Positions 3,960-63,127 of a DNA stretch of 64,000 nt are shown one piece after another. The notes beneath the pieces are model-generated. The model saw only the letters and a program-made list of their open reading frames with translations, did no database searches and was not told where the DNA came from. Each line of letters begins with the position of its first letter. Positions within the stretch are counted from its first letter, which is position 1. Source of the stretch: Escherichia phage vB-Eco-KMB37. The position numbers and the translations under genes are program-made. The stretch lies in sequence record OR525700. One strand, given 5' to 3'.

Positions 3960-3985
3960 TAAAGGGGCTTTCGCCCCTTTTTATT
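3960..3985. terminator. Bidirectional-looking intrinsic terminator hairpin
   Basis: AAAGGGGC-TTTC-GCCCCTTT hairpin flanked by an A-run and a T-run. Confidence 0.5.
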
Positions 3986-4946
3986 AAATTCCAATAACAG
4001 TGTTTACACGCTTCTCTTTGCTACGTAAATTAACACGTCCACGAGACAGGCTATTACATGATGTGCATCTTAGCACTTGGAATGTACTAACCGCTGTTGT
4101 GTAAACCTTACCAGGAACAACTTCAAGGTGCTCTTTACCGCAACGAGGACAACGAAGTTTTTCATCGTCATAGAATGCAGATACGTTAGGATGTTGTGGA
4201 ATCCATGCACGAAGTTTGATGTAAAGATCTCTAAGAGAAACAACATCACCATCGTTGTATGTTTGCATACGGAAGAAGGCATGTCTATCTCCTTCACAAC
4301 ATGCTTTCCACAAAGGAAAACCTTCATTATCAAGTTTAAAGTTTTCTGTATCAAAATACAGACACATTTCTTTAAGCGCATTAGAAGGTAGTGCAAACTG
4401 CTTCTTAGCTGCCTTGAGTGTATCAATTACAACATAATGTGATGGTGGCTCCATACCGTGAAAAGCAAAACGTTGGTTAATATAAGCCTTATCAAACTTA
4501 ATTCCGTTGTGCGCGATCACAATATCTGCATCGTCAAGCAAGTGCCAGAGATCTTGACATAATTCCCAATCATCTGTATGATCTATGTCAAACAAAGGGT
4601 AATTGCTAAGGTTCTTACCTTCTACTTCCCCTGTTTCTAAATCAGCAGATGAATAGGAAAGCAAGTAACCTCGACGAATAACTTGTTCAGGTGCAATAAA
4701 GGCTTTGAAACGTGAGAAGCTATACACAATCTCCGGTGCTGTCTCTACGTCAATAATTTTAATTACTGGCCCACCTTTATCTTGCGGAGCACCGCGATGT
4801 GGTGAATTTACACGAGCTAAGTAATCATTTACTGTGCTCTTCTTAGTAGAACTTCCCAACACCTCTTGTGCAATCTTACGCGAAGAATAACCTTGTGCTT
4901 TCATAGATACAATCAAGGCTTTCTGTTCGTCTGTTAATTTACTCAA
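3984..4946 (-). CDS. DEDD-family 3'-5' exonuclease with N-terminal HTH and C-terminal zinc ribbon
   Basis: IIDVETAPE (Exo I) and IAHNGIKFDKAYI (Exo II/III-like) motifs; N-terminal sigma-region-4-like HTH; CPRCG...CTSCN at C-terminus. Confidence 0.6.
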   Translation of the reverse strand: MSKLTDEQKALIVSMKAQGYSSRKIAQEVLGSSTKKSTVNDYLARVNSPHRGAPQDKGGPVIKIIDVETAPEIVYSFSRFKAFIAPEQVIRRGYLLSYSSADLETGEVEGKNLSNYPLFDIDHTDDWELCQDLWHLLDDADIVIAHNGIKFDKAYINQRFAFHGMEPPSHYVVIDTLKAAKKQFALPSNALKEMCLYFDTENFKLDNEGFPLWKACCEGDRHAFFRMQTYNDGDVVSLRDLYIKLRAWIPQHPNVSAFYDDEKLRCPRCGKEHLEVVPGKVYTTAVSTFQVLRCTSCNSLSRGRVNLRSKEKRVNTVIGI

Positions 4947-55643: not shown

Positions 55644-55650
55644 TTAAAAA

Positions 55651-55674
55651 AGGGGCGAAAGCCCCTTTATAAAA
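55651..55674 (+). terminator. Rho-independent terminator
   Basis: AGGGGC-GAAA-GCCCCT hairpin then TTTAT. Confidence 0.5.
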
Positions 55675-55685
55675 GGAGTAGTAAA

Positions 55686-57647
55686 GTGATTTTAACACGT
55701 CCAAATAGTGCCATTGCAGACATGGTAGAGTCTCGCTATAGAAAGCGTAGAAGTTTTGCAAGTGGTTTTACCTTAAGAGATGCTCGTGAAGCATTGCTCT
55801 TTGAAACTGACGGTAACTACTATCAGTGGAAAGGTTCTCTACCTAAAGTTGTACCTGCTAACTCTACTCCTACATCTACTGGAGGGATTTCAGATACAGC
55901 TTGGAAAAATGTGGGTAATGCAGATGACATTGCTCAAATAGAATCAGAATTAGATGCTATTGAAGCTGAAATTGAAGATCTTAGAGAATCCATTCCAGAA
56001 GCTGGTAAATCAGCTTACCAGATTGCCGTAGACAATGGTTTCCAAGGTACTGAGACAGACTGGTTGGCTTCTTTAAAAGGTGATCCAGGTGCTCCATTAA
56101 AGCTGCTAGGGACGCTATCTAATACCAACCAATTACCTACAACTGGAAACAATGCAGGAGATGCATGGATTGTAGGCGAGAATATGTATGCTTGGGATGG
56201 TACTGCTTGGAGAAAAGTAAACTCACAGGGGCCAGAAGGTAAATCAGCTTATCAAGTTTGGCTTGCAGCAGGAAACCAAGGTACAGAACTAGATTATCTT
56301 GCTTCAATTAAAGGTGATAAAGGGGAGCCTGGCCCAGAGGGGCCACAAGGTGTGCCAGGTAACAATGCTAATGGTTTTGATTACCAAGGTGCAGCTAATT
56401 CCGTTTCAGATCTTCCTTCTGCATCTCCTGGAAACACATCTCAAGCATGGAGTATTGGTACATATCTATACGTGTCAAACGGTGTAGAATGGATCAATAT
56501 GGGCGCTATAGTGGGGCCAAAAGGAGATAAAGGCGACAAAGGAGATAAGGGTAACACTGGTGATTCTGCTTATCAAGTCTGGTTAAATGCTGGTAACGTT
56601 GGTACTATTGACGAATATATTGCCTCTCTGAAAGGAGAAAAAGGTGATAAGGGAGACAAGGGTGATCAAGGTGAGCAGGGTATACAAGGCTTGACGGGGC
56701 CAACTGGTGCAGGGTTGACCATTATTGATATTCTGACTGACACTTCTGAACTACCACAAACTGGAGAAGATGGTGATGGTTATCTGATCAATAATGAACT
56801 TTGGGTTTGGTTGCAAGGAGCCACACAGTGGACAAATGTTGGTCGTTTAGCTGGTACTCCAATCACTGCAAAAGGACACGTTGCGTCTGCAAGTGCACTT
56901 CCTCCTACATCCAATTACGGTGATGCTTATCTGACGGAAGATACAGGTCATCTTTACATTTACACCTATGATGAACAAACTCAAACTGCTGAATATGTAG
57001 ATATGGGTAGTTTGAAAGGTGATAAGGGTGAGAAAGGTGACGCTGGTACTAATGGTACGGATGGTGCAACTTGGATTGTTAAAACAACAGATCCAATCTC
57101 TAGTGATGGTAAACAAGGGGATTATGCCTTTAATATCTCCACTGGCGAGGTGTTCTTAAAAACATCTGCAACTGCCTGGACTTCTCAAGGTACACTGCCT
57201 AGCATCACAGATGCACCTAGTGACGGTAAGATCTATGCTCGTAAAGATGGAACATGGGAAGAACTCACTAGTTCTGTAGATGGTCAAGATATAGTTCCAA
57301 CAAAAGTAACAACTAATTTTATAGAGGTTACAGCATACACCAACAACTCTGTTACAGGGGACTGGACACCTCCAGGAACACATAACATGAATGTGTTGAA
57401 TCTTACTGGTAACTCTACTATAAAAGCATGGCCTGGTGTCGAAGATAGCACAAAACCTAAACCATTCTCTGCAATAGTTTATCTTATCCAAGATGCCACT
57501 GGGGGTCATACTGTTACTTTAGATCCATCTTACAAAGTAATTGGTTCTAGTGATATTAATACAGATCCTAACGGAGTAACAATACTACAACTAACATATT
57601 GTGGTGTTGGTGATTACGTGGATGCTATTGTTGCTAAACGCACATAA
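55686..57647 (+). CDS. Tail fibre with collagen-like Gly-X-Y repeats
   Basis: GDKGEPGPEGPQGVPG, GPKGDKGDKGDKGNTGD, KGEKGDKGDKGDQGEQGIQGLTGPTG; a roughly 30-aa SAYQ...LASLKG motif repeated three times; GTG start. Confidence 0.6.
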   Translation: MILTRPNSAIADMVESRYRKRRSFASGFTLRDAREALLFETDGNYYQWKGSLPKVVPANSTPTSTGGISDTAWKNVGNADDIAQIESELDAIEAEIEDLRESIPEAGKSAYQIAVDNGFQGTETDWLASLKGDPGAPLKLLGTLSNTNQLPTTGNNAGDAWIVGENMYAWDGTAWRKVNSQGPEGKSAYQVWLAAGNQGTELDYLASIKGDKGEPGPEGPQGVPGNNANGFDYQGAANSVSDLPSASPGNTSQAWSIGTYLYVSNGVEWINMGAIVGPKGDKGDKGDKGNTGDSAYQVWLNAGNVGTIDEYIASLKGEKGDKGDKGDQGEQGIQGLTGPTGAGLTIIDILTDTSELPQTGEDGDGYLINNELWVWLQGATQWTNVGRLAGTPITAKGHVASASALPPTSNYGDAYLTEDTGHLYIYTYDEQTQTAEYVDMGSLKGDKGEKGDAGTNGTDGATWIVKTTDPISSDGKQGDYAFNISTGEVFLKTSATAWTSQGTLPSITDAPSDGKIYARKDGTWEELTSSVDGQDIVPTKVTTNFIEVTAYTNNSVTGDWTPPGTHNMNVLNLTGNSTIKAWPGVEDSTKPKPFSAIVYLIQDATGGHTVTLDPSYKVIGSSDINTDPNGVTILQLTYCGVGDYVDAIVAKRT

Positions 57648-57686: not shown

Positions 57687-60506
57687 ATGTATCCTATTCC
57701 TTTATTTATGTCAACAACATCAGCTTCAGTAGTAACAGCTACATCTATAACTACTTCCTCTATTGGTATTGCAATAGTTGGTGGTAAAAAACAACTGACA
57801 TACACAGTTACACCCGAAGATGGTGCGTTATTTGATATAGCTTTTTCATCTTCAGATGATACCAAAATGGTTATAGATAATAGTGGTATGATGGAGTTTG
57901 TTGCCGAAGGTGGTTTTGATGCAATAATGACAGCTAAAAATAATTTAGGTGCTGTCTTAACTGATCAATCTGGTGGTTATGCTTCAGAATTAAGTGTGTA
58001 CACTGAAAGTCTATCGGCTATGGATGTAGGCACTACTCAACAGTTGGTTGCTACAATCAGTCCAGAAGGTGCTAAAGACCTTCCAGATATGGTAATTACA
58101 TACACCACAACAGATCCAGAAGTAGCTACTGTAAGCCCTACAGGGTTAATAACTGCTCTTAAAGATGGCGGTTGCCGTATAGGTTGTACTGCAACGTATC
58201 AAGGAACAGTTGTGGCCTCTGATAGTTCTTATTTAGGTGTTAATGCTATTCCTGTTATTTCTAATGTAACAGCCGTGGCAAACAGCTATGGAGACGTTCG
58301 TGTTGCTTGGGATGTAGCTGATCCGCTAGACGGTGATACTTATACTGTAGAAGTATTAGATTTAAGTAATAATAGTGTTCAGTGGACTACAACAACCACG
58401 AATACTTACGCCTACTTTGATATCTCTGACTCTATTCCTCTTTATGGGTTTGCTCCAACATACCTTAAAATTAGCGTTAAGAGCACCAAAGCAGCAGCCG
58501 TTATCTTTAATAACTCAATAGCTACAGATGATTCGTTCATTAAAGAAGTTATTGTCTTTGCTGGACAAGATAACGTAAATGCACACTTTACAGAACTATC
58601 TGGTGCAAATAAAGCAGCAATGGGTAGCACAACAGCCCGTAATGCATATGCTACGCAACGTGGTTTAGCAAATGCTGAAGTTCTTCCGTTAAATACAGCT
58701 TCTGGATCATCAGCAGCAGATAAATATGCTGACGATAAAGCTGGAACAGGTACACCAGATAACTACTGGTATGATCTGGATAACACAGCAGATGGGCCAT
58801 GCTTAACTAACTTTATCACTAAAGTCACACCTTATGCAAGTAAGGTTAAAGCAATTATTTGGGGACAAGGTGAAAATGATGCTGTATCAGCATCTTCGAC
58901 TGTTGCAGGTAGGTACAGTAACACTACACGTTACCATGATGCTACGATAGCTATCTTTGATAAGATGCGTACAATAGTTCCTGCTTCTCAAGCAAAAATT
59001 GTTTGGCAGATCCTAGGACGTTCTTATTTATATGGTGTAGAAGTTAATGGTGTGGATTGGCAGAAGTACAGAAATGTACAAAGAACCATCTCTACAGCAC
59101 GTGATGATGTTATCATTGGTTCTTGGGTAGATGGTGCTGAACGTTACAGTGGTTATGTTTATGAAGAAGGTATTGATGGTCGTATCCATTATATTTCTTC
59201 TGTATACCAAACAGCAGCTACAAAACTTGCTAAATCAGCAGCAGACGGTACAGACTTAACATCAACGTCACCTGTTTGGGTTGATATGGCTGTTCCAACT
59301 GGAGCAACAGCTACTTCCCAACCTAATCAAGATACAATTTTAGCATGGGATGCTCAAGGCTATAGTAAACACTACTTCCGTAATATTAACGTCTTAACAG
59401 CATCTGTAGTAGCTGAACAAACGCTTAATACGAACAGTTATACGTTTACCTATGCAGATCAAGTAGAACAATATGGTTTTGCGGCAGGAACTACTATATT
59501 TGATGTTGCATATTATGACGAAGCAAATGATGTGTTATCTCCTTTAGTACGTTTTAATGTTAACGTTACAGCAGGAACAGTGGAAGACAAACCTGTCGTG
59601 ATGGATTATGACTTGACGCAAGAAACTCTTCCATCAGGTGTTCAGGCTAATGGCGGGAACTCTTTTGCTCGTGCTTCTGGAGATATACTTGTAGCCACTA
59701 ACACCTTGGTTGCTCCGTTGGAGTATGTTGGTACTACCCCTGTAGGTAGACGTGTAACAGCTAACACAGCCTCACAAATTTTTGTCAACAACGCCTTAAC
59801 AAGTGCAAGCCCGTGGGTAAAGACCAACTTAACTGTTGCAGCTTCGTCTGATAACTCTCCGGCTGGAACTACTGCCAATGTATTCAAATTAACTCCGACT
59901 ACAACCTCTGGTAGTCATATCTTAACTGCAACATATACTAACGCGTACAACATATACGCCGGACGTAACTGGTCTGCCTCTGTTTTCTTGAAAGCGAACG
60001 GGATTACTAAGGCCAAACTAAGATTACAAGCAGGGACTGAAGTTAATGAGGGTACTTTTGATTTAGCAGCAGGCACATTCACAGGAAGTGAAGCTAATAT
60101 TATATCTATGGGCAACGGTTGGTATCGTGCTATTCTGCATAAAACAGGGATAGCCAAACAGTCCTCCATAAGTTTTGAAATAATTGCCTTGGATGCAACT
60201 GGTGCGGAGATTTTCGCTGGAGATGGTACTAGTAACCTTGCAGTTTGGTTGCCACAGCTTGAAGGTGCTCCTACAGGACAAACATCAAAAGCTGGATCGC
60301 CTTTTGTCTGCACATATCCTGGAAATTTAGGAGGAGTATCCTTCACTATACCAAGGAACGGACATACTGGCGTGGATGTTTACTATTCCAACGGAGACGT
60401 TGTTCGTGACGTATTCTCTGGTACGGCATCTACTTGGACAATAAACTACTCCAGCTTGTACGATTGGGGATCAGTCTTTATTACAGGTTTGAAATATTAC
60501 GACTAA
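57687..60506 (+). CDS. Large tail fibre with Ig-like (Big_2-type) repeats and an SGNH/SASA-like esterase domain
   Basis: Two Big_2-like N-terminal segments; esterase-like motifs VIVFAGQDNVNAHF and AIIWGQGENDAV (GQSN / WxQGExD pattern); 939 aa. Confidence 0.5.
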   Translation: MYPIPLFMSTTSASVVTATSITTSSIGIAIVGGKKQLTYTVTPEDGALFDIAFSSSDDTKMVIDNSGMMEFVAEGGFDAIMTAKNNLGAVLTDQSGGYASELSVYTESLSAMDVGTTQQLVATISPEGAKDLPDMVITYTTTDPEVATVSPTGLITALKDGGCRIGCTATYQGTVVASDSSYLGVNAIPVISNVTAVANSYGDVRVAWDVADPLDGDTYTVEVLDLSNNSVQWTTTTTNTYAYFDISDSIPLYGFAPTYLKISVKSTKAAAVIFNNSIATDDSFIKEVIVFAGQDNVNAHFTELSGANKAAMGSTTARNAYATQRGLANAEVLPLNTASGSSAADKYADDKAGTGTPDNYWYDLDNTADGPCLTNFITKVTPYASKVKAIIWGQGENDAVSASSTVAGRYSNTTRYHDATIAIFDKMRTIVPASQAKIVWQILGRSYLYGVEVNGVDWQKYRNVQRTISTARDDVIIGSWVDGAERYSGYVYEEGIDGRIHYISSVYQTAATKLAKSAADGTDLTSTSPVWVDMAVPTGATATSQPNQDTILAWDAQGYSKHYFRNINVLTASVVAEQTLNTNSYTFTYADQVEQYGFAAGTTIFDVAYYDEANDVLSPLVRFNVNVTAGTVEDKPVVMDYDLTQETLPSGVQANGGNSFARASGDILVATNTLVAPLEYVGTTPVGRRVTANTASQIFVNNALTSASPWVKTNLTVAASSDNSPAGTTANVFKLTPTTTSGSHILTATYTNAYNIYAGRNWSASVFLKANGITKAKLRLQAGTEVNEGTFDLAAGTFTGSEANIISMGNGWYRAILHKTGIAKQSSISFEIIALDATGAEIFAGDGTSNLAVWLPQLEGAPTGQTSKAGSPFVCTYPGNLGGVSFTIPRNGHTGVDVYYSNGDVVRDVFSGTASTWTINYSSLYDWGSVFITGLKYYD

Positions 60507-60508
60507 TA

Positions 60509-60540
60509 AAAAAGGAGCCATTAGGCTCCTTTTCTTTTAT
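60509..60540. terminator. Bidirectional terminator between convergent genes; first copy of a repeated hairpin
   Basis: AGGAGCC-ATTA-GGCTCCT hairpin then TTTCTTTT; near-identical copy at 61678-61700. Confidence 0.55.
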
Positions 60541-60541
60541 C

Positions 60542-60973
60542 TTAATCAGTGAAAATTACGCTTACATCTTCTTTAGAAAAGAGTTTATGATCTTCACCTT
60601 TTGTCTCAAGAGTTTCATACAGGCTAAGAAGTTCTGAAACATCTTTCTCTACCAGTTTCTTCAATGTTGCAATTTTCTGTTTGCGACTCTTAATACGTTC
60701 AGCTACAACCTTACGCTGGTATCCGGCAGTACGATAACCTGAGAAAGTTACACCAGTAAGGCTTGCAGTTACAGGATCGTAATGACGTTCAATCTGAAAC
60801 TTATTAAAAGGTACAGCGTCATCACGAATAATCTTACCGCCATTACTTACTTGACGAAGACCAGTAACTTGTTCCAGTCGTGCCATAGAAATCTTTGGAG
60901 ACAGACCAGAGTCCAGGTTCATACCATTGTTAATCAGTGCTTTCAGGGTGATTTTGCTGTTCAGTGTACTCAT
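60542..60973 (-). CDS. Hypothetical protein (start probably internal Met near 60922)
   Basis: 143-aa ORF whose longest form overlaps the methyltransferase 3' end by 44 nt. Confidence 0.4.
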   Translation of the reverse strand: MSTLNSKITLKALINNGMNLDSGLSPKISMARLEQVTGLRQVSNGGKIIRDDAVPFNKFQIERHYDPVTASLTGVTFSGYRTAGYQRKVVAERIKSRKQKIATLKKLVEKDVSELLSLYETLETKGEDHKLFSKEDVSVIFTD

Positions 60974-61661
60974 TTAGTCGTTCCTCCGCTTGCTTAAAAA
61001 TATTTACATCGGCTTCACAGCCTAAGTATTCTCTACCTGTTAAAAGTGCCGCAACTTGTGTTGTTGCACTTCCAGAGAAGAAGTCTAAGACTACATCTCC
61101 TTCGTTGGTGTGTATATTAATAAGGTCACAAAACAAAGTCAAGTGTTTTTGTGTTGGATGAAAACGATCTGCTCCTTGATAGATAGGATACTCAAACACA
61201 CCCTTATGGTAGGAAGCATTGAAGGTTGGTTTCGAACCTTTAACACAAACAATAGCCATCTCTTTAGCGTTACTAAGGTAGTTAACACCACTGTTGATGG
61301 GTACAGGGTTTGTTTTAATCCATTCGATAGTACGGAACATACGAAAACCAAGCGGTTCAAGGATTTCACGTAGCTCTTGGATCTTCCAGATATCATACCA
61401 AACTATGCAAGTACCACCTTTTCTAAGCACCCTGTAGGCTTCTTTGAATACTTCTTTAAAGTAAGGAATATCTACAACATCCCAGTCACCAAAGTTGTAA
61501 GATACACGGAATCTATCCGTATCTTTTCCAGTAGGCTCTCCAGACTGAAAATTTGTGTCACGAGAAATAGCATATGGTGGGTCAGTAAGAATCAAATCTA
61601 CACTATTGCTTTCGAGGGTTTGCAGGTAGTTTAATGCGGTGTTGTTTACAAATTCGCTCAT
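60930..61661 (-). CDS. DNA methyltransferase, beta class (N6-adenine or N4-cytosine)
   Basis: DPPY (ILTDPPYAI) near the N-terminus and AdoMet motif VLDFFSGSATT near the C-terminus. Confidence 0.8.
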   Translation of the reverse strand: MSEFVNNTALNYLQTLESNSVDLILTDPPYAISRDTNFQSGEPTGKDTDRFRVSYNFGDWDVVDIPYFKEVFKEAYRVLRKGGTCIVWYDIWKIQELREILEPLGFRMFRTIEWIKTNPVPINSGVNYLSNAKEMAIVCVKGSKPTFNASYHKGVFEYPIYQGADRFHPTQKHLTLFCDLINIHTNEGDVVLDFFSGSATTQVAALLTGREYLGCEADVNIFKQAEERLNEYTEQQNHPESTD

Positions 61662-61677
61662 TATATCTCCTTCAAAG

Positions 61678-61700
61678 AAAAGGAGCCGTTAGGCTCCTTA
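61678..61700 (-). terminator. Terminator-like hairpin; second copy of the repeated hairpin
   Basis: AAGGAGCC-GTTA-GGCTCCTT between the SSB-like and methyltransferase genes. Confidence 0.45.
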
Positions 61701-61721
61701 TATTCACACAATATTTAACTA

Positions 61722-62669
61722 TTAGAAACAGTGCAGGAAGTTTCGACCATACTGCAAACCAATAGGAGCAAATGGGATATCATCATCGAAATCTTGAACA
61801 ACAGGTTCTGGTTCTTTCGGTGCTGGCTCTTTCTTCTCTACTTTTTTAGTTTCTTTCTTAACTTCTTGTACTGGGGTAGACATTCCACGGATAGCAGCAG
61901 CTACTTTATCAGACAAAGCAAGAACTTCACGAGCAGCTTCAATAATCTCTTCTGCCGTTACAGTTTTACCTGTATGATCACGACAAGCGTTAAGAATTGC
62001 GTGTCCAACTGAAGCACCAAGATCATAGTCAGTCACATCAACGCCACGATCTTTAGCAATTTCTGCTTTCAGAGTAACAGTTGCAGATTGTACCACACCA
62101 GCCAAGTCGAAAGCATCACCTTTCACACCAGCACGTAGAAGCTCCAGAGCGCCGTTTACAGCGTGTCCTGTTTCAATCCCTACGGTATCACGTTTTTTGT
62201 AGTTAGGCTTACTACCTTCGTTATTAGATGGCTTATTTCCACCTTTTGAAGAAGATTGTGCTTGCTGAACACCTTCTGTTGAAAGAATAGTGATTTTACC
62301 TTTAGAGGAATTGTAGTATGTTTTGCCATTCCATTCAGAAGGTTTAACATCCATAGTTAGTTCTACACCTTTTTCGATAGTAACCCACTTATCACCATCT
62401 TTAACTTGCAGGTTTTCATGTTCTGGATGCAGTTTAACTTCACCTAGGCTAACCCAAACACCTTTATCATCAGCACCAGCACCTTTCTCTTTAATAAGCA
62501 GGGATGCTTTGTGAGTTGATTCAATTTTCTTATCTGGCTGACCTGCAACCTTAATATAAGAGACTTTCATTTCATCAAACTTATCTAGTTTGACATATTC
62601 AACGATACCTTCAGCCCAGAATGCTTCTTTTTTAGTACGACGGTCGATTTCAGAATTAATTACTGGCAT
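61722..62669 (-). CDS. ssDNA-binding-like protein with SSB-type acidic motif
   Basis: Gly/Ser/Gln/Lys-rich linker then DFDDDIPF near the C-terminus, followed unusually by 15 more residues. Confidence 0.45.
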   Translation of the reverse strand: MPVINSEIDRRTKKEAFWAEGIVEYVKLDKFDEMKVSYIKVAGQPDKKIESTHKASLLIKEKGAGADDKGVWVSLGEVKLHPEHENLQVKDGDKWVTIEKGVELTMDVKPSEWNGKTYYNSSKGKITILSTEGVQQAQSSSKGGNKPSNNEGSKPNYKKRDTVGIETGHAVNGALELLRAGVKGDAFDLAGVVQSATVTLKAEIAKDRGVDVTDYDLGASVGHAILNACRDHTGKTVTAEEIIEAAREVLALSDKVAAAIRGMSTPVQEVKKETKKVEKKEPAPKEPEPVVQDFDDDIPFAPIGLQYGRNFLHCF

Positions 62670-63084: not shown

Positions 63085-63127
63085 TCAAGTCCTCATAATA
63101 ACACACAATTATAATGTTTGTCAACAC

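Follow-up and report, generated by a model that had tools for sequence, protein, structure and literature searches.

Two near-identical hairpins bracket a beta-class DNA methyltransferase gene and an open reading frame (ORF) of 143 amino acids in Escherichia phage vB-Eco-KMB37 (sequence record OR525700), and the question they raise is whether such bracketing marks the genes as an inserted cassette or whether the hairpins belong to the place in which the genes happen to lie. The first-pass annotation of this DNA had leaned to the former position, suggesting a moron-like module delimited by the repeats. Within the window, that is, the whole stretch of 64,000 nucleotides analysed here, we found the two hairpins as that annotation had described them, at 60510-60533 (H1) and 61680-61699 (H2), and no other copies. 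Comparison with the same locus in relatives identifies the hairpins as belonging to the locus and not to the methyltransferase cassette.

The gene pair

The methyltransferase gene (60930..61661, minus strand) encodes a predicted orphan N6/N4 DNA methyltransferase of 243 amino acids. Its assignment to the beta class, already proposed in the first pass, is borne out by a match to PF01555 (N6_N4_Mtase; 106.9 bits, 1.9e-30; gathering cut-off 26.7), which covers profile positions 1-221 of 221, and by the order of its motifs, with DPPY (motif IV) at residue 27 standing N-terminal to FSGSA (motif I) at residue 195. Matches in the PDB included 5hek/5hfj at 1e-28 and also CcrM (6pbd), and the protein is closest to enzymes of the DpnA/M1.HpyAVI type. 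All NCBIfam matches, the CcrM equivalog included, fell far below the curated cut-offs, so that no specificity can be transferred to the enzyme. No gene for a cognate endonuclease adjoins it. Its ribosome-binding site, GAAGGAG (61667..61673, minus strand), is identified from sequence, is annotated in phi92 and overlaps the end of the H2 T-run.

The 143-aa ORF (60542..60973, minus strand; phrog_20244, phi92 gp154) overlaps the 3' end of the methyltransferase gene by 44 nt, and the two are probably translationally coupled. Its product is predicted to comprise a winged-helix-like N-terminal domain and a long helix (pLDDT 94.3). The same two genes form an overlapping two-gene unit in L053, a contig of an unrelated phage. 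Neither matches a transposase, integrase or recombinase family, and no gene of these kinds lies between the hairpins. The GC content of the cassette (39.4%) is close to that of the tail gene on one side (40.6%), the SSB-like gene on the other (40.2%) and the window (38.0%).

The methyltransferase is at least 99% identical across 55 Justusliebigvirus records, all of which carry the cassette, while the next best phage match, in phages of Geobacillus, Streptococcus and Staphylococcus, is below 40%, and no donor was found among cultured phages. The closest methyltransferases outside Justusliebigvirus are metagenomic: L056 (81% identical), L057 (78%) and L053 (63%). L056 and L057 carry the cassette at this locus too, and it is absent from the sister genus Phapecoctavirus. 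These comparisons mark the two genes as an accessory module, one that was probably acquired in the lineage of Justusliebigvirus and of its close uncultivated relatives.

The hairpins and their flanking genes

H1 lies between convergent stop codons, beginning 4 nt after the stop at 60506 of a 939-aa tail protein gene (57687..60506, plus strand) and ending 9 nt from the stop at 60542 of the 143-aa ORF on the opposite strand. The tail protein has a Big_2 domain (Pfam); its annotation in alia, PaulScherrer and others reads tail protein or lateral tail fibre, and its gene is the last of the late tail-fibre operon. The full H1 sequence is AAAAGGAGCCATTAGGCTCCTTTT, with a stem of ten pairs (AAAAGGAGCC/GGCTCCTTTT; five GC) and an ATTA loop. 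T-runs follow the stem on both strands, TTTTCTTTT on the plus and TTTTTTATT on the minus strand, and H1 is predicted to be a bidirectional intrinsic terminator.

H2 (full sequence AAGGAGCCGTTAGGCTCCTT) lies between the methyltransferase start at 61661 and the stop at 61722 of an SSB-like gene of 315 amino acids, both on the minus strand. It is placed 23 nt past that stop, and the next ribosome-binding site follows 6 nt after its stem, which has eight pairs (five GC). The plus strand reads AAGGAGCC-GTTA-GGCTCCTT, and the minus strand AAGGAGCC-TAAC-GGCTCCTT followed by TTCTTTG. On the minus strand there is a T-run, TTTTCTTT, 3' of the stem; the plus strand has only TTATATT, so H2 is predicted to be a unidirectional terminator or attenuator, acting on minus-strand transcripts.

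The SSB-like gene (61722..62669, minus strand), annotated as SSB in BME3, ESCO9 and JLBYU50, ends in an acidic DFDDDIPF motif and a 15-aa C-terminal extension. We considered whether this extension after DDDIPF, together with a short ORF (MVETSCTVSNS*), might be the insertion scar of an HNH homing endonuclease; this origin was rejected because the SSB genes of Mydovirus KB57, Mydo and Vibrio phage 1.038.O have the same extension. Separately, a stretch of about 20 nt following the SSB-like stop bears a weak likeness to the 5' region of the HNH gene in Citrobacter phage Tr1, a possible but unproven remnant.

A strong sigma-70-type promoter is predicted upstream on the minus strand (63095..63124; TTGACA-18-TATTAT with TG, 11/12). 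A sigma-70-type scan found no consensus promoter in the interval that separates the methyltransferase start from the SSB-like stop (61662-61722); a phage-specific methyltransferase promoter, of a kind beyond the reach of such a scan, may nonetheless be present. One candidate overlapping H2, TGTGAATAT, was picked out by eye as a possible extended -10 element and rejected, being below the scan threshold and not conserved in L057 or L056.

Terminator character and conservation

H1 and H2 took the top two ranks in a scan for terminator-like sites from 44 to 64 kb. As RNA they fold with minimum free energies of -14.7 to -20.4 kcal/mol, better than nearly all shuffled sequences (z -2.4 to -5.9), and an Rfam search over 60300-61900 gave only matches that failed the E-value threshold, all of them located at H1, H2 or the sequence beside them. 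They resemble intrinsic terminators in their GC-rich stems, 4-nt loops, immediate T-runs, intergenic positions after stop codons and compensatory stem changes, and nothing essential sets them apart, although after H2 the next ribosome-binding site follows at the unusually short distance of 6 nt. On these features both are ordinary intrinsic (rho-independent) terminators, with termination activity predicted from structure and position.

The 20-nt core AAGGAGCCNTTAGGCTCCTT occurs at two sites in the 64 kb when up to three mismatches are allowed, and matched nothing in 100 shuffles. In the complete genome of phage alia (147,009 bp), 98.6% identical to the window over the 6.5 kb compared, the motif is likewise confined to the two orthologous sites. 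Elsewhere it is anything but rare: the same core with its T-run, AAGGAGCC-N4-GGCTCCTTTTCTTT, turned up in 30 IMG/VR stretches whose contexts are many and unrelated, which makes it a common phage terminator and speaks against the hairpins as markers of the cassette. Other hairpins also recur nearly identically at unrelated sites in alia, for example AAAGGGGCTTTCGCCCCTTT at about five.

Relatives that lack the cassette, namely phAPEC8, Tr1, Mydovirus and the T1-like Tlsvirus, have orthologues of H1 at their tail/SSB junction in which substitutions on the two sides of the stem compensate one another, and a terminator is already annotated at the orthologous site in phAPEC8 and Mydo. When 14 genomes were aligned at this hairpin, 99.3% of alignment cells paired and both sides had changed in three of ten pairs; the covariation score of 0.246 (shuffles, 0.082) was reached by none of 500 shuffles. 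Stem variants at the site include GGAGCC/GGCTCC, GGGAACC/GGTTCCC and GGCTCCC/GGGAGCC, besides intermediates with G-T or A-C. Among homologous tail/SSB sites it is the structure, rather than the sequence, that has been kept. H2 presents a different picture, being identical to its counterpart in L057 over 34 nt, loop included (100%), where the methyltransferase is 78% identical and the adjacent gene DNA only about 70%. This exceeds what a purely structural constraint would demand, and could reflect a sequence-specific role or a recent exchange.

The loop of H1 is TAAT or TATT in close relatives, in place of ATTA, while H2 is unchanged there; to read H1 and H2 as a direct repeat hinges on the loop. 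Loop flips and inversions of whole hairpins are both seen among relatives. In L034 the hairpins are inverted repeats identical at 25 of 26 nt, and in L015 the hairpin orthologous to H2 (hpA) is identical over about 38 nt to the reverse complement of its partner (hpB).

The same locus in relatives

Comparison with relatives that lack the cassette, as the first-pass annotation had advised, gave a divided result: the genes are missing from the expected place in phAPEC8, nieznany, ZCKP1, Tr1, L013, L014 and L016, but one or both hairpins remain there. A single hairpin with no cargo is found in phAPEC8, L014 and L016, and a single hairpin with an HNH gene in nieznany, ZCKP1 and Tr1. In an uncultivated sister clade, whose hpA is orthologous to H2 in L012, L013 and L015, the slot of L013 is empty, its hairpin pair lying 33 nt apart, while in L015 the pair surrounds a promoter and a 139-aa homologue of the 143-aa ORF without a methyltransferase; L012 has the same arrangement with an HNH gene in addition. 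The promoter of L015 and L012, of sigma-70 type (TTGACG-17-TAATAT), stands directly after hpA, and it is exactly this unit of promoter and gene that L013 lacks.

Conversely, the cassette is not tied to this pair of hairpins. In L056 it occupies the same slot, with terminators on either side that do not resemble each other, H2 being replaced by GGGGC-TTCG-GCCCC; L057 keeps H2 and has a different H1; and L053 has both genes and no hairpins at all. That the same genes occur without the repeats, and that the repeats surround an empty slot in L013 and no methyltransferase in L015 and L012, goes against treating the bracketing as a sign of insertion; the first of these findings is one that the first-pass annotation had itself named as refuting its idea. 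A further discontinuity lies at H1 itself, since phi92, muut and VEcB have a different tail gene at this place and their homology to the window begins exactly at H1.

A probable cargo slot between backbone terminators

We consider it likely that H1 and H2 are backbone terminators of a phi92-like coliphage and form the two ends of a small cargo slot lying where convergent operons meet. The operons converging there would be the late tail-fibre operon on the plus strand and an early or middle replication operon on the minus strand, in which the promoter at 63124-63095 would serve a 132-aa gene and the SSB-like gene. Most of these transcripts would end at H2, while a fraction would read through into the methyltransferase and the overlapping 143-aa gene. 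H1 would then end the read-through transcripts and, from the other direction, those of the tail operon. Under this model H1 is the ancient bidirectional terminator of the tail/SSB junction, while H2, either copied from it or come to resemble it by convergence, serves the SSB operon. We infer an origin of H2 by duplication; some historical connection between the two, for instance through duplication or gene conversion, is probable though unproven, since within this genome the GGAGCC hairpin occurs only at these two adjacent sites and chance convergence explains this poorly.

Alternative explanations

The hairpins might instead, as a mechanistic form of the first-pass reading would have it, be recombination linkers of a mobile cassette resembling a moron or a PeSL (promoter-early stem-loop), with homologous recombination between short conserved terminators inserting, deleting or swapping the genes between them and so leaving look-alike hairpins at either side. 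Wherever relatives differ in content at this locus, hairpins form the boundaries of the difference, the tail-gene allele swaps of phi92, muut and VEcB have their breakpoints exactly at H1, and the loop flips and inversions demonstrate that the palindromes rearrange; hpA with its sigma-70 promoter in L015 and L012 is the very composite that defines PeSLs (PMC2839356, PMC4122927), and the unit missing from L013 is precisely that promoter with its gene. We nevertheless regard this account as unlikely. The gene pair exists without hairpins (L053) or with unlike ones (L056, L057), orthologous hairpins stand in genomes that never show the cassette, the genome has two copies and not a dispersed family, and H2 in the window has no accompanying promoter. 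L013 is not a hairpin-by-hairpin recombinant, since it keeps both hairpins around an unrelated 33-nt spacer; moreover, the hairpins of its clade are inverted repeats, between which recombination would invert the intervening DNA and not delete it. No ongoing loss of the cassette is seen, given that all 55 Justusliebigvirus records retain it, and breakpoints at gene ends would also be expected from selection for viable recombinants alone. A broader version of the idea, on which we would place still a little less weight, makes the tail/SSB convergence point of phi92-like and rV5-like phages, and of those T1-like phages that have the same 38-nt terminator, a PeSL-like exchange hotspot; when phages co-infect a cell, portable palindromic hairpins would there act as linkers through which tail-fibre alleles and cargo (HNH endonucleases, the methyltransferase with its winged-helix partner) pass from one phage to another, family boundaries notwithstanding, the hairpins flipping and duplicating meanwhile.

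That H1 and H2 are alike through convergence or coincidence, with no historical link and only because strong terminators draw on a small sequence space, seems improbable to us. The recurrence of the core and T-run in 30 IMG/VR stretches, the several further hairpin families repeated in alia, the differing loops of H1 and H2 and the unlike flanking terminators of some relatives would all suit it; identities of 25 of 26 nt in L034 and about 38 nt in L015 do not, nor does the fact that neighbouring terminators are the sole two copies in 147 kb, nor that pairs of like hairpins are found in two separate lineages. We find it very hard to credit that the 16-bp perfect palindromes, GGAGCC-N4-GGCTCC, are operators for a dimeric 143-aa protein that regulates or insulates its own locus in the manner of the controller proteins of restriction-modification systems. 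The predicted winged-helix-like domain and long helix agree with such a role, as do the GGAGCC palindromes flanking the homologue in L015 and L012, one of them directly upstream of the homologue's promoter, and the invariance of H2 between the window and L057. Yet the pair occurs without palindromes in L053 and with different hairpins on both sides in L056, and, as far as the hairpin sites themselves were examined, many phages have the palindrome where nothing points to this locus.

Relation to known elements

The PeSLs of T4-type phages (Arbiol et al. 2010, PMC2839356; Comeau et al. 2014, PMC4122927) are the nearest parallel to the slot, for they too are short conserved stem-loop terminators that flank non-essential ORFs in variable regions and lie at the boundaries of indels between related phages, and in the sister clade of L015 and L012 a sigma-70 promoter stands immediately behind the stem-loop. 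In contrast to the dozens of PeSLs in a genome, there are two copies here, neither with an attached promoter in the window, the stem is GGAGCC where PeSLs have polyG/polyC, and the phage family is another (Stephanstirmvirinae).

A lambdoid moron is a unit of promoter, gene and terminator inserted between backbone genes. The description of the cassette as moron-like holds in so far as an accessory pair is present or absent (as in Phapecoctavirus and Tr1) between the same backbone genes, with a terminator after it, and the 139-aa homologue in L015 even has a promoter and terminator of its own. It fails in that the cassette in the window has no consensus promoter, stands with H2 6 nt before its ribosome-binding site, does not deviate in GC content from its neighbours (38-40.6%) and shares its terminators with the backbone, the one that follows it being the tail/SSB terminator also found in cassette-less relatives. 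Published work describes phi92-like phages as lytic and isolated them as such (PMC8594841, PMC12210895); expression from a lysogen, as for morons, therefore does not apply.

For biology at large this changes little. What is gained is the labelling of two terminators, a likely account of how an accessory methyltransferase is wired to a replication operon, and a variable slot that can be followed cleanly from relative to relative in a group of phages used in studies of therapy and biocontrol. It also illustrates that where the terminator sequences of a genome recur, a mobile cassette can be argued only weakly from look-alike hairpins on either side of a gene. Since widely differing contents are tolerated between H2 and H1, the slot there is a natural site for payload engineering in phi92-like phages.

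With respect to the enzyme itself, a literature search on phi92 with methyltransferase and terminator returned nothing specific. Its motif order (IV then I), PF01555 score above cut-off and want of an adjoining endonuclease are shared with phage orphan methyltransferases similar to DpnA/M1.HpyAVI and to CcrM, and are typical of anti-restriction or epigenetic enzymes. It differs from these in its conserved, overlapping 143-aa partner and in that its phi92-like carriers stay highly sensitive to the restriction systems tried against them, the BASEL phenotyping having found phi92-like phages to be exceptionally susceptible (PMC8594841). The conserved pairing, set against this reported sensitivity, suggests that the role of the methyltransferase may not be one of generic anti-restriction.

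Results

Between positions 57500 and 64000 the window shares 98.6% identity with Escherichia phage alia and 93-99% with some 50 further phi92-like phages (Justusliebigvirus, Stephanstirmvirinae). Gene order runs from a tail protein gene (57687-60506, + strand) through hairpin H1 (60510-60533), a 143-aa ORF (60542-60973, - strand), a methyltransferase gene (60930-61661, - strand) and hairpin H2 (61680-61699) to an SSB-like 315-aa gene (61722-62669, - strand), a 132-aa gene and a nucleotidyltransferase gene. Four unannotated 146-kb GenBank records, "Campylobacter phage" A150, A145, C3 and A110a (MG065639, MG065645, MG065656, MG065689; host C. jejuni), are ~99% identical to E. coli Justusliebigvirus throughout this region; probably either the stated host is an error or the stocks contained another phage.

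The sequence confirms the two hairpins at the places first given for them, which the first-pass annotation took to mark a moron-like insertion. Their 20-nt core AAGGAGCCNTTAGGCTCCTT, allowing up to 3 mismatches, matches only the H1 and H2 sites in the 64 kb (100 shuffles gave no match), as does the looser pattern GGAGCC-N4-GGCTCC, and the complete alia genome (147,009 bp, assembled from three loci) carries the motif at the two orthologous sites only. The bracketing is therefore real and the motif is no genome-wide repeat. Near-identical terminator hairpins do recur at unrelated alia sites: AAAGGGGCTTTCGCCCCTTT at about five (29709, 41062, 101292, 112577, 125664), AAACCCGCTTCGGCGGGTTT at two or three (100540, 104925, 74760) and AAGGGCGCTTATTGCGCCCTT at two (82753, 88135; loci L007-L009). 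Such terminator 'families' characterise this genome in general, and recurrent terminator-like hairpins occur in the window at 3961-3980 and 55649-55668. The exact core and T-run AAGGAGCC-N4-GGCTCCTTTTCTTT turns up in 30 stretches of IMG/VR and in many different settings, so look-alike terminators are common.

H1 and H2 are the top two terminator-like sites in a scan of 44-64 kb. Two convergent stop codons enclose H1, which has a T-run on each strand; its RNA fold has an energy of -16.4 kcal/mol on the + strand and -20.4 kcal/mol on the - strand (z -4.7 and -5.9). H2 begins 23 nt past the SSB-like stop, has a good T-run on the - strand only (TTTTCTTT), and stops 6 nt short of GAAGGAG, the ribosome-binding site of the methyltransferase gene. 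An Rfam search gave only sub-threshold matches, every one at H1 or H2 and the adjoining sequence. With all sequence-level defining features present, both hairpins are to be regarded as intrinsic terminators by predicted function. No consensus promoter was found from the SSB-like stop codon to the start of the methyltransferase gene, and a strong sigma-70 promoter, close to consensus and with an extended -10 (TTGACA-18-TATTAT, 11/12, TG; 63124-63095, - strand), lies upstream of the 132-aa gene, between it and the nucleotidyltransferase gene; the simplest wiring is thus read-through of H2. Transcription from this promoter would pass through the 132-aa and SSB-like genes, H2 would act as an attenuator with the methyltransferase and 143-aa gene expressed by read-through, and H1 would end both these transcripts and the tail operon.

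Where the tail and SSB genes meet, the hairpin is old and under structural constraint. Its flanks TAATAAAAAAGG ... CCTTTTCTTTTAT are kept between tail and SSB genes in several groups, while the stems differ and are always complementary: GGGAACC/GGTTCCC in phAPEC8 and nieznany, GGAGCC/GGCTCC in ZCKP1 and Tr1, swapped arms (GGCTCCC/GGGAGCC) in Mydovirus KB57 and Mydo, and GGGAGCC/GGCTCCC in IMG/VR relatives, with G-T and A-C intermediates in the uncultivated loci L056 and L057. In a 14-site alignment 99.3% of cells pair, both sides have changed in 3 of 10 pairs, and the covariation score of 0.246 (0.082 in shuffles) was attained by none of 500. The site is annotated as a terminator in phAPEC8 and Mydo. 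The hairpin also occurs in T1-like Tlsvirus and ~60 other Drexlerviridae records: there the 38-nt terminator and its flanks are the same, TAATAAAAAAGGAGCC-N4-GGCTCCTTTTCTTTTAT (L005 2502-2538), and it lies between tail-fibre and ssb genes, the phi92-like gene context, in an unrelated phage family.

Among close relatives, the loops of these hairpins flip. The H1 loop (60520-60523) reads ATTA in the window and in alia and phi92, TAAT in L011/L034, and TATT in genomes of the PD06 type (variants at L011 5642-5657 and L010 5641-5656), whereas H2 is constant in the genus, so the two hairpins form a direct repeat in some isolates and an inverted one in others. A hairpin loop is TTTT in KB57 against AAAA in Mydo (L017, L018 ~2965-2985), and an imperfect hairpin is wholly inverted between L056 (~4400-4430) and L057 (~1870-1900), its flanks unmoved. 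These sequence comparisons show that the palindromes rearrange, and the changes follow the pattern expected of inversion within a palindrome.

Discussion

Both cassette genes are present, at no less than 95% protein identity, in 55 of 55 phage-database records of the Justusliebigvirus-type SSB region; with loss seen in none, the cassette is fixed in that genus. Its GC content equals that of neighbouring genes. Beyond the genus, L056 (a 151.5-kb contig of the same synteny) holds in the same slot a methyltransferase (81% identical) and a 130-aa homologue (65%), flanked upstream by GGGGC-TTCG-GCCCC and downstream by GGGAGCCTC-TTGC-GAGGTTCCC. L057 has SSB, an HNH-like sequence, H2 (identical to that of the window across 34 nt), methyltransferase (78%), a 143-aa homologue (55%) and a different downstream hairpin. 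L053, a 77.7-kb contig with unrelated neighbours, carries a methyltransferase (63%) and an overlapping 136-aa homologue in a co-directional gene array, and no hairpins flank its cassette. The same genes thus occur without the look-alike repeats at all three loci, an outcome that the first-pass annotation had named as refuting its reading, and the hairpins are no signature of the cassette. These loci establish the two genes as a conserved overlapping pair, and across the comparison set the small gene can stand alone. Its start overlaps the methyltransferase 3' end by 23-44 nt in all lineages with both (window 60930-60973; L053 3183-3205; L056 4001-4032; L057 1429-1472), an arrangement that suggests translational coupling.

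The slot itself, between the SSB and tail genes, varies. A single hairpin without cargo is found in phAPEC8, L014 and L016, and a single hairpin with an HNH endonuclease gene in nieznany, ZCKP1 and Citrobacter phage Tr1. An uncultivated clade (L012/L013/L015; SSB 59-63% identical) carries a pair of hairpins, hpA and hpB, ~38-nt inverted repeats with a GGAGCC stem. These are separated by only a 33-nt spacer in L013; in L015 a sigma-70 promoter and a 139-aa ORF homologous to the 143-aa one (39% identity, E 4e-28) lie between them, as in L012, which has in addition a different HNH gene inserted past the SSB gene. No methyltransferase was found at this locus in the three, so two-hairpin bracketing exists without that gene and even without any gene. 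Across these genomes the contents of the slot are variable, and the hairpins remain with it. HNH genes lie directly 3' of the SSB stop at L002 2705-3199, L003 2738-3145, L058 2836-3330, L057 ~270-700 and L012 4406-4912, one type in nieznany, ZCKP1, Tr1 and L057 and an unrelated type in L012, which suggests that the SSB 3' end is a recurrent, perhaps homing, insertion site. The ZCKP1 copy is labelled 'baseplate wedge gp25', which is probably a misannotation.

In evolutionary terms the locus is similar to the cassettes of ORFs that PeSLs (promoter-early stem-loops) flank in T4-type phages (PMC2839356, PMC4122927) and to lambdoid morons, and a PeSL-like exchange mechanism is possible. However, it has no attached promoter, only two hairpin copies and normal composition; the L015 arrangement in the sister clade fits better. 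Since the window lacks these defining features, we class the hairpins as terminators, and the two genes as an accessory module in a terminator-insulated slot. The earlier interpretation is partly supported: the genes form an accessory module in a variable slot, but a moron-type module marked by hairpins is not supported, given the missing promoter, normal GC and unlike flanks in relatives. The hairpin-bracketed feature is ordinary.

Assignment of the methyltransferase to the beta class held (PF01555 at 1.9e-30; DPPY at residue 27 precedes FSGSA at 195). Its closest solved relatives are the DpnA-like M1.HpyAVI and CcrM, and no endonuclease gene adjoins it. By analogy with orphan phage methyltransferases (BME3; PMC12210895), an anti-restriction role is plausible on general grounds, but phi92-like phages are reported to be highly sensitive to restriction systems (PMC8594841), so any protection must be narrow. 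Alia has three further annotated DNA methyltransferases, one of them cytosine (gp002, 1410-1889; gp168, 103463-104452; gp181, 109660-110169), yet that sensitivity is reported.

Bacterial SSBs end at their IPF tip. The SSB-like protein has 15 residues (APIGLQYGRNFLHCF; 61722-61766, - strand) beyond the canonical acidic tip DFDDDIPF. SSB ends at IPF in phAPEC8, L056, L057 and Tlsvirus, and right at the acidic tip, with no extension, in IMG/VR relatives L012-L016. The same extension is present in nieznany, ZCKP1, Tr1, Mydovirus KB57, Mydo and Vibrio phage 1.038.O (L002, L003, L017, L018, L019, L058).
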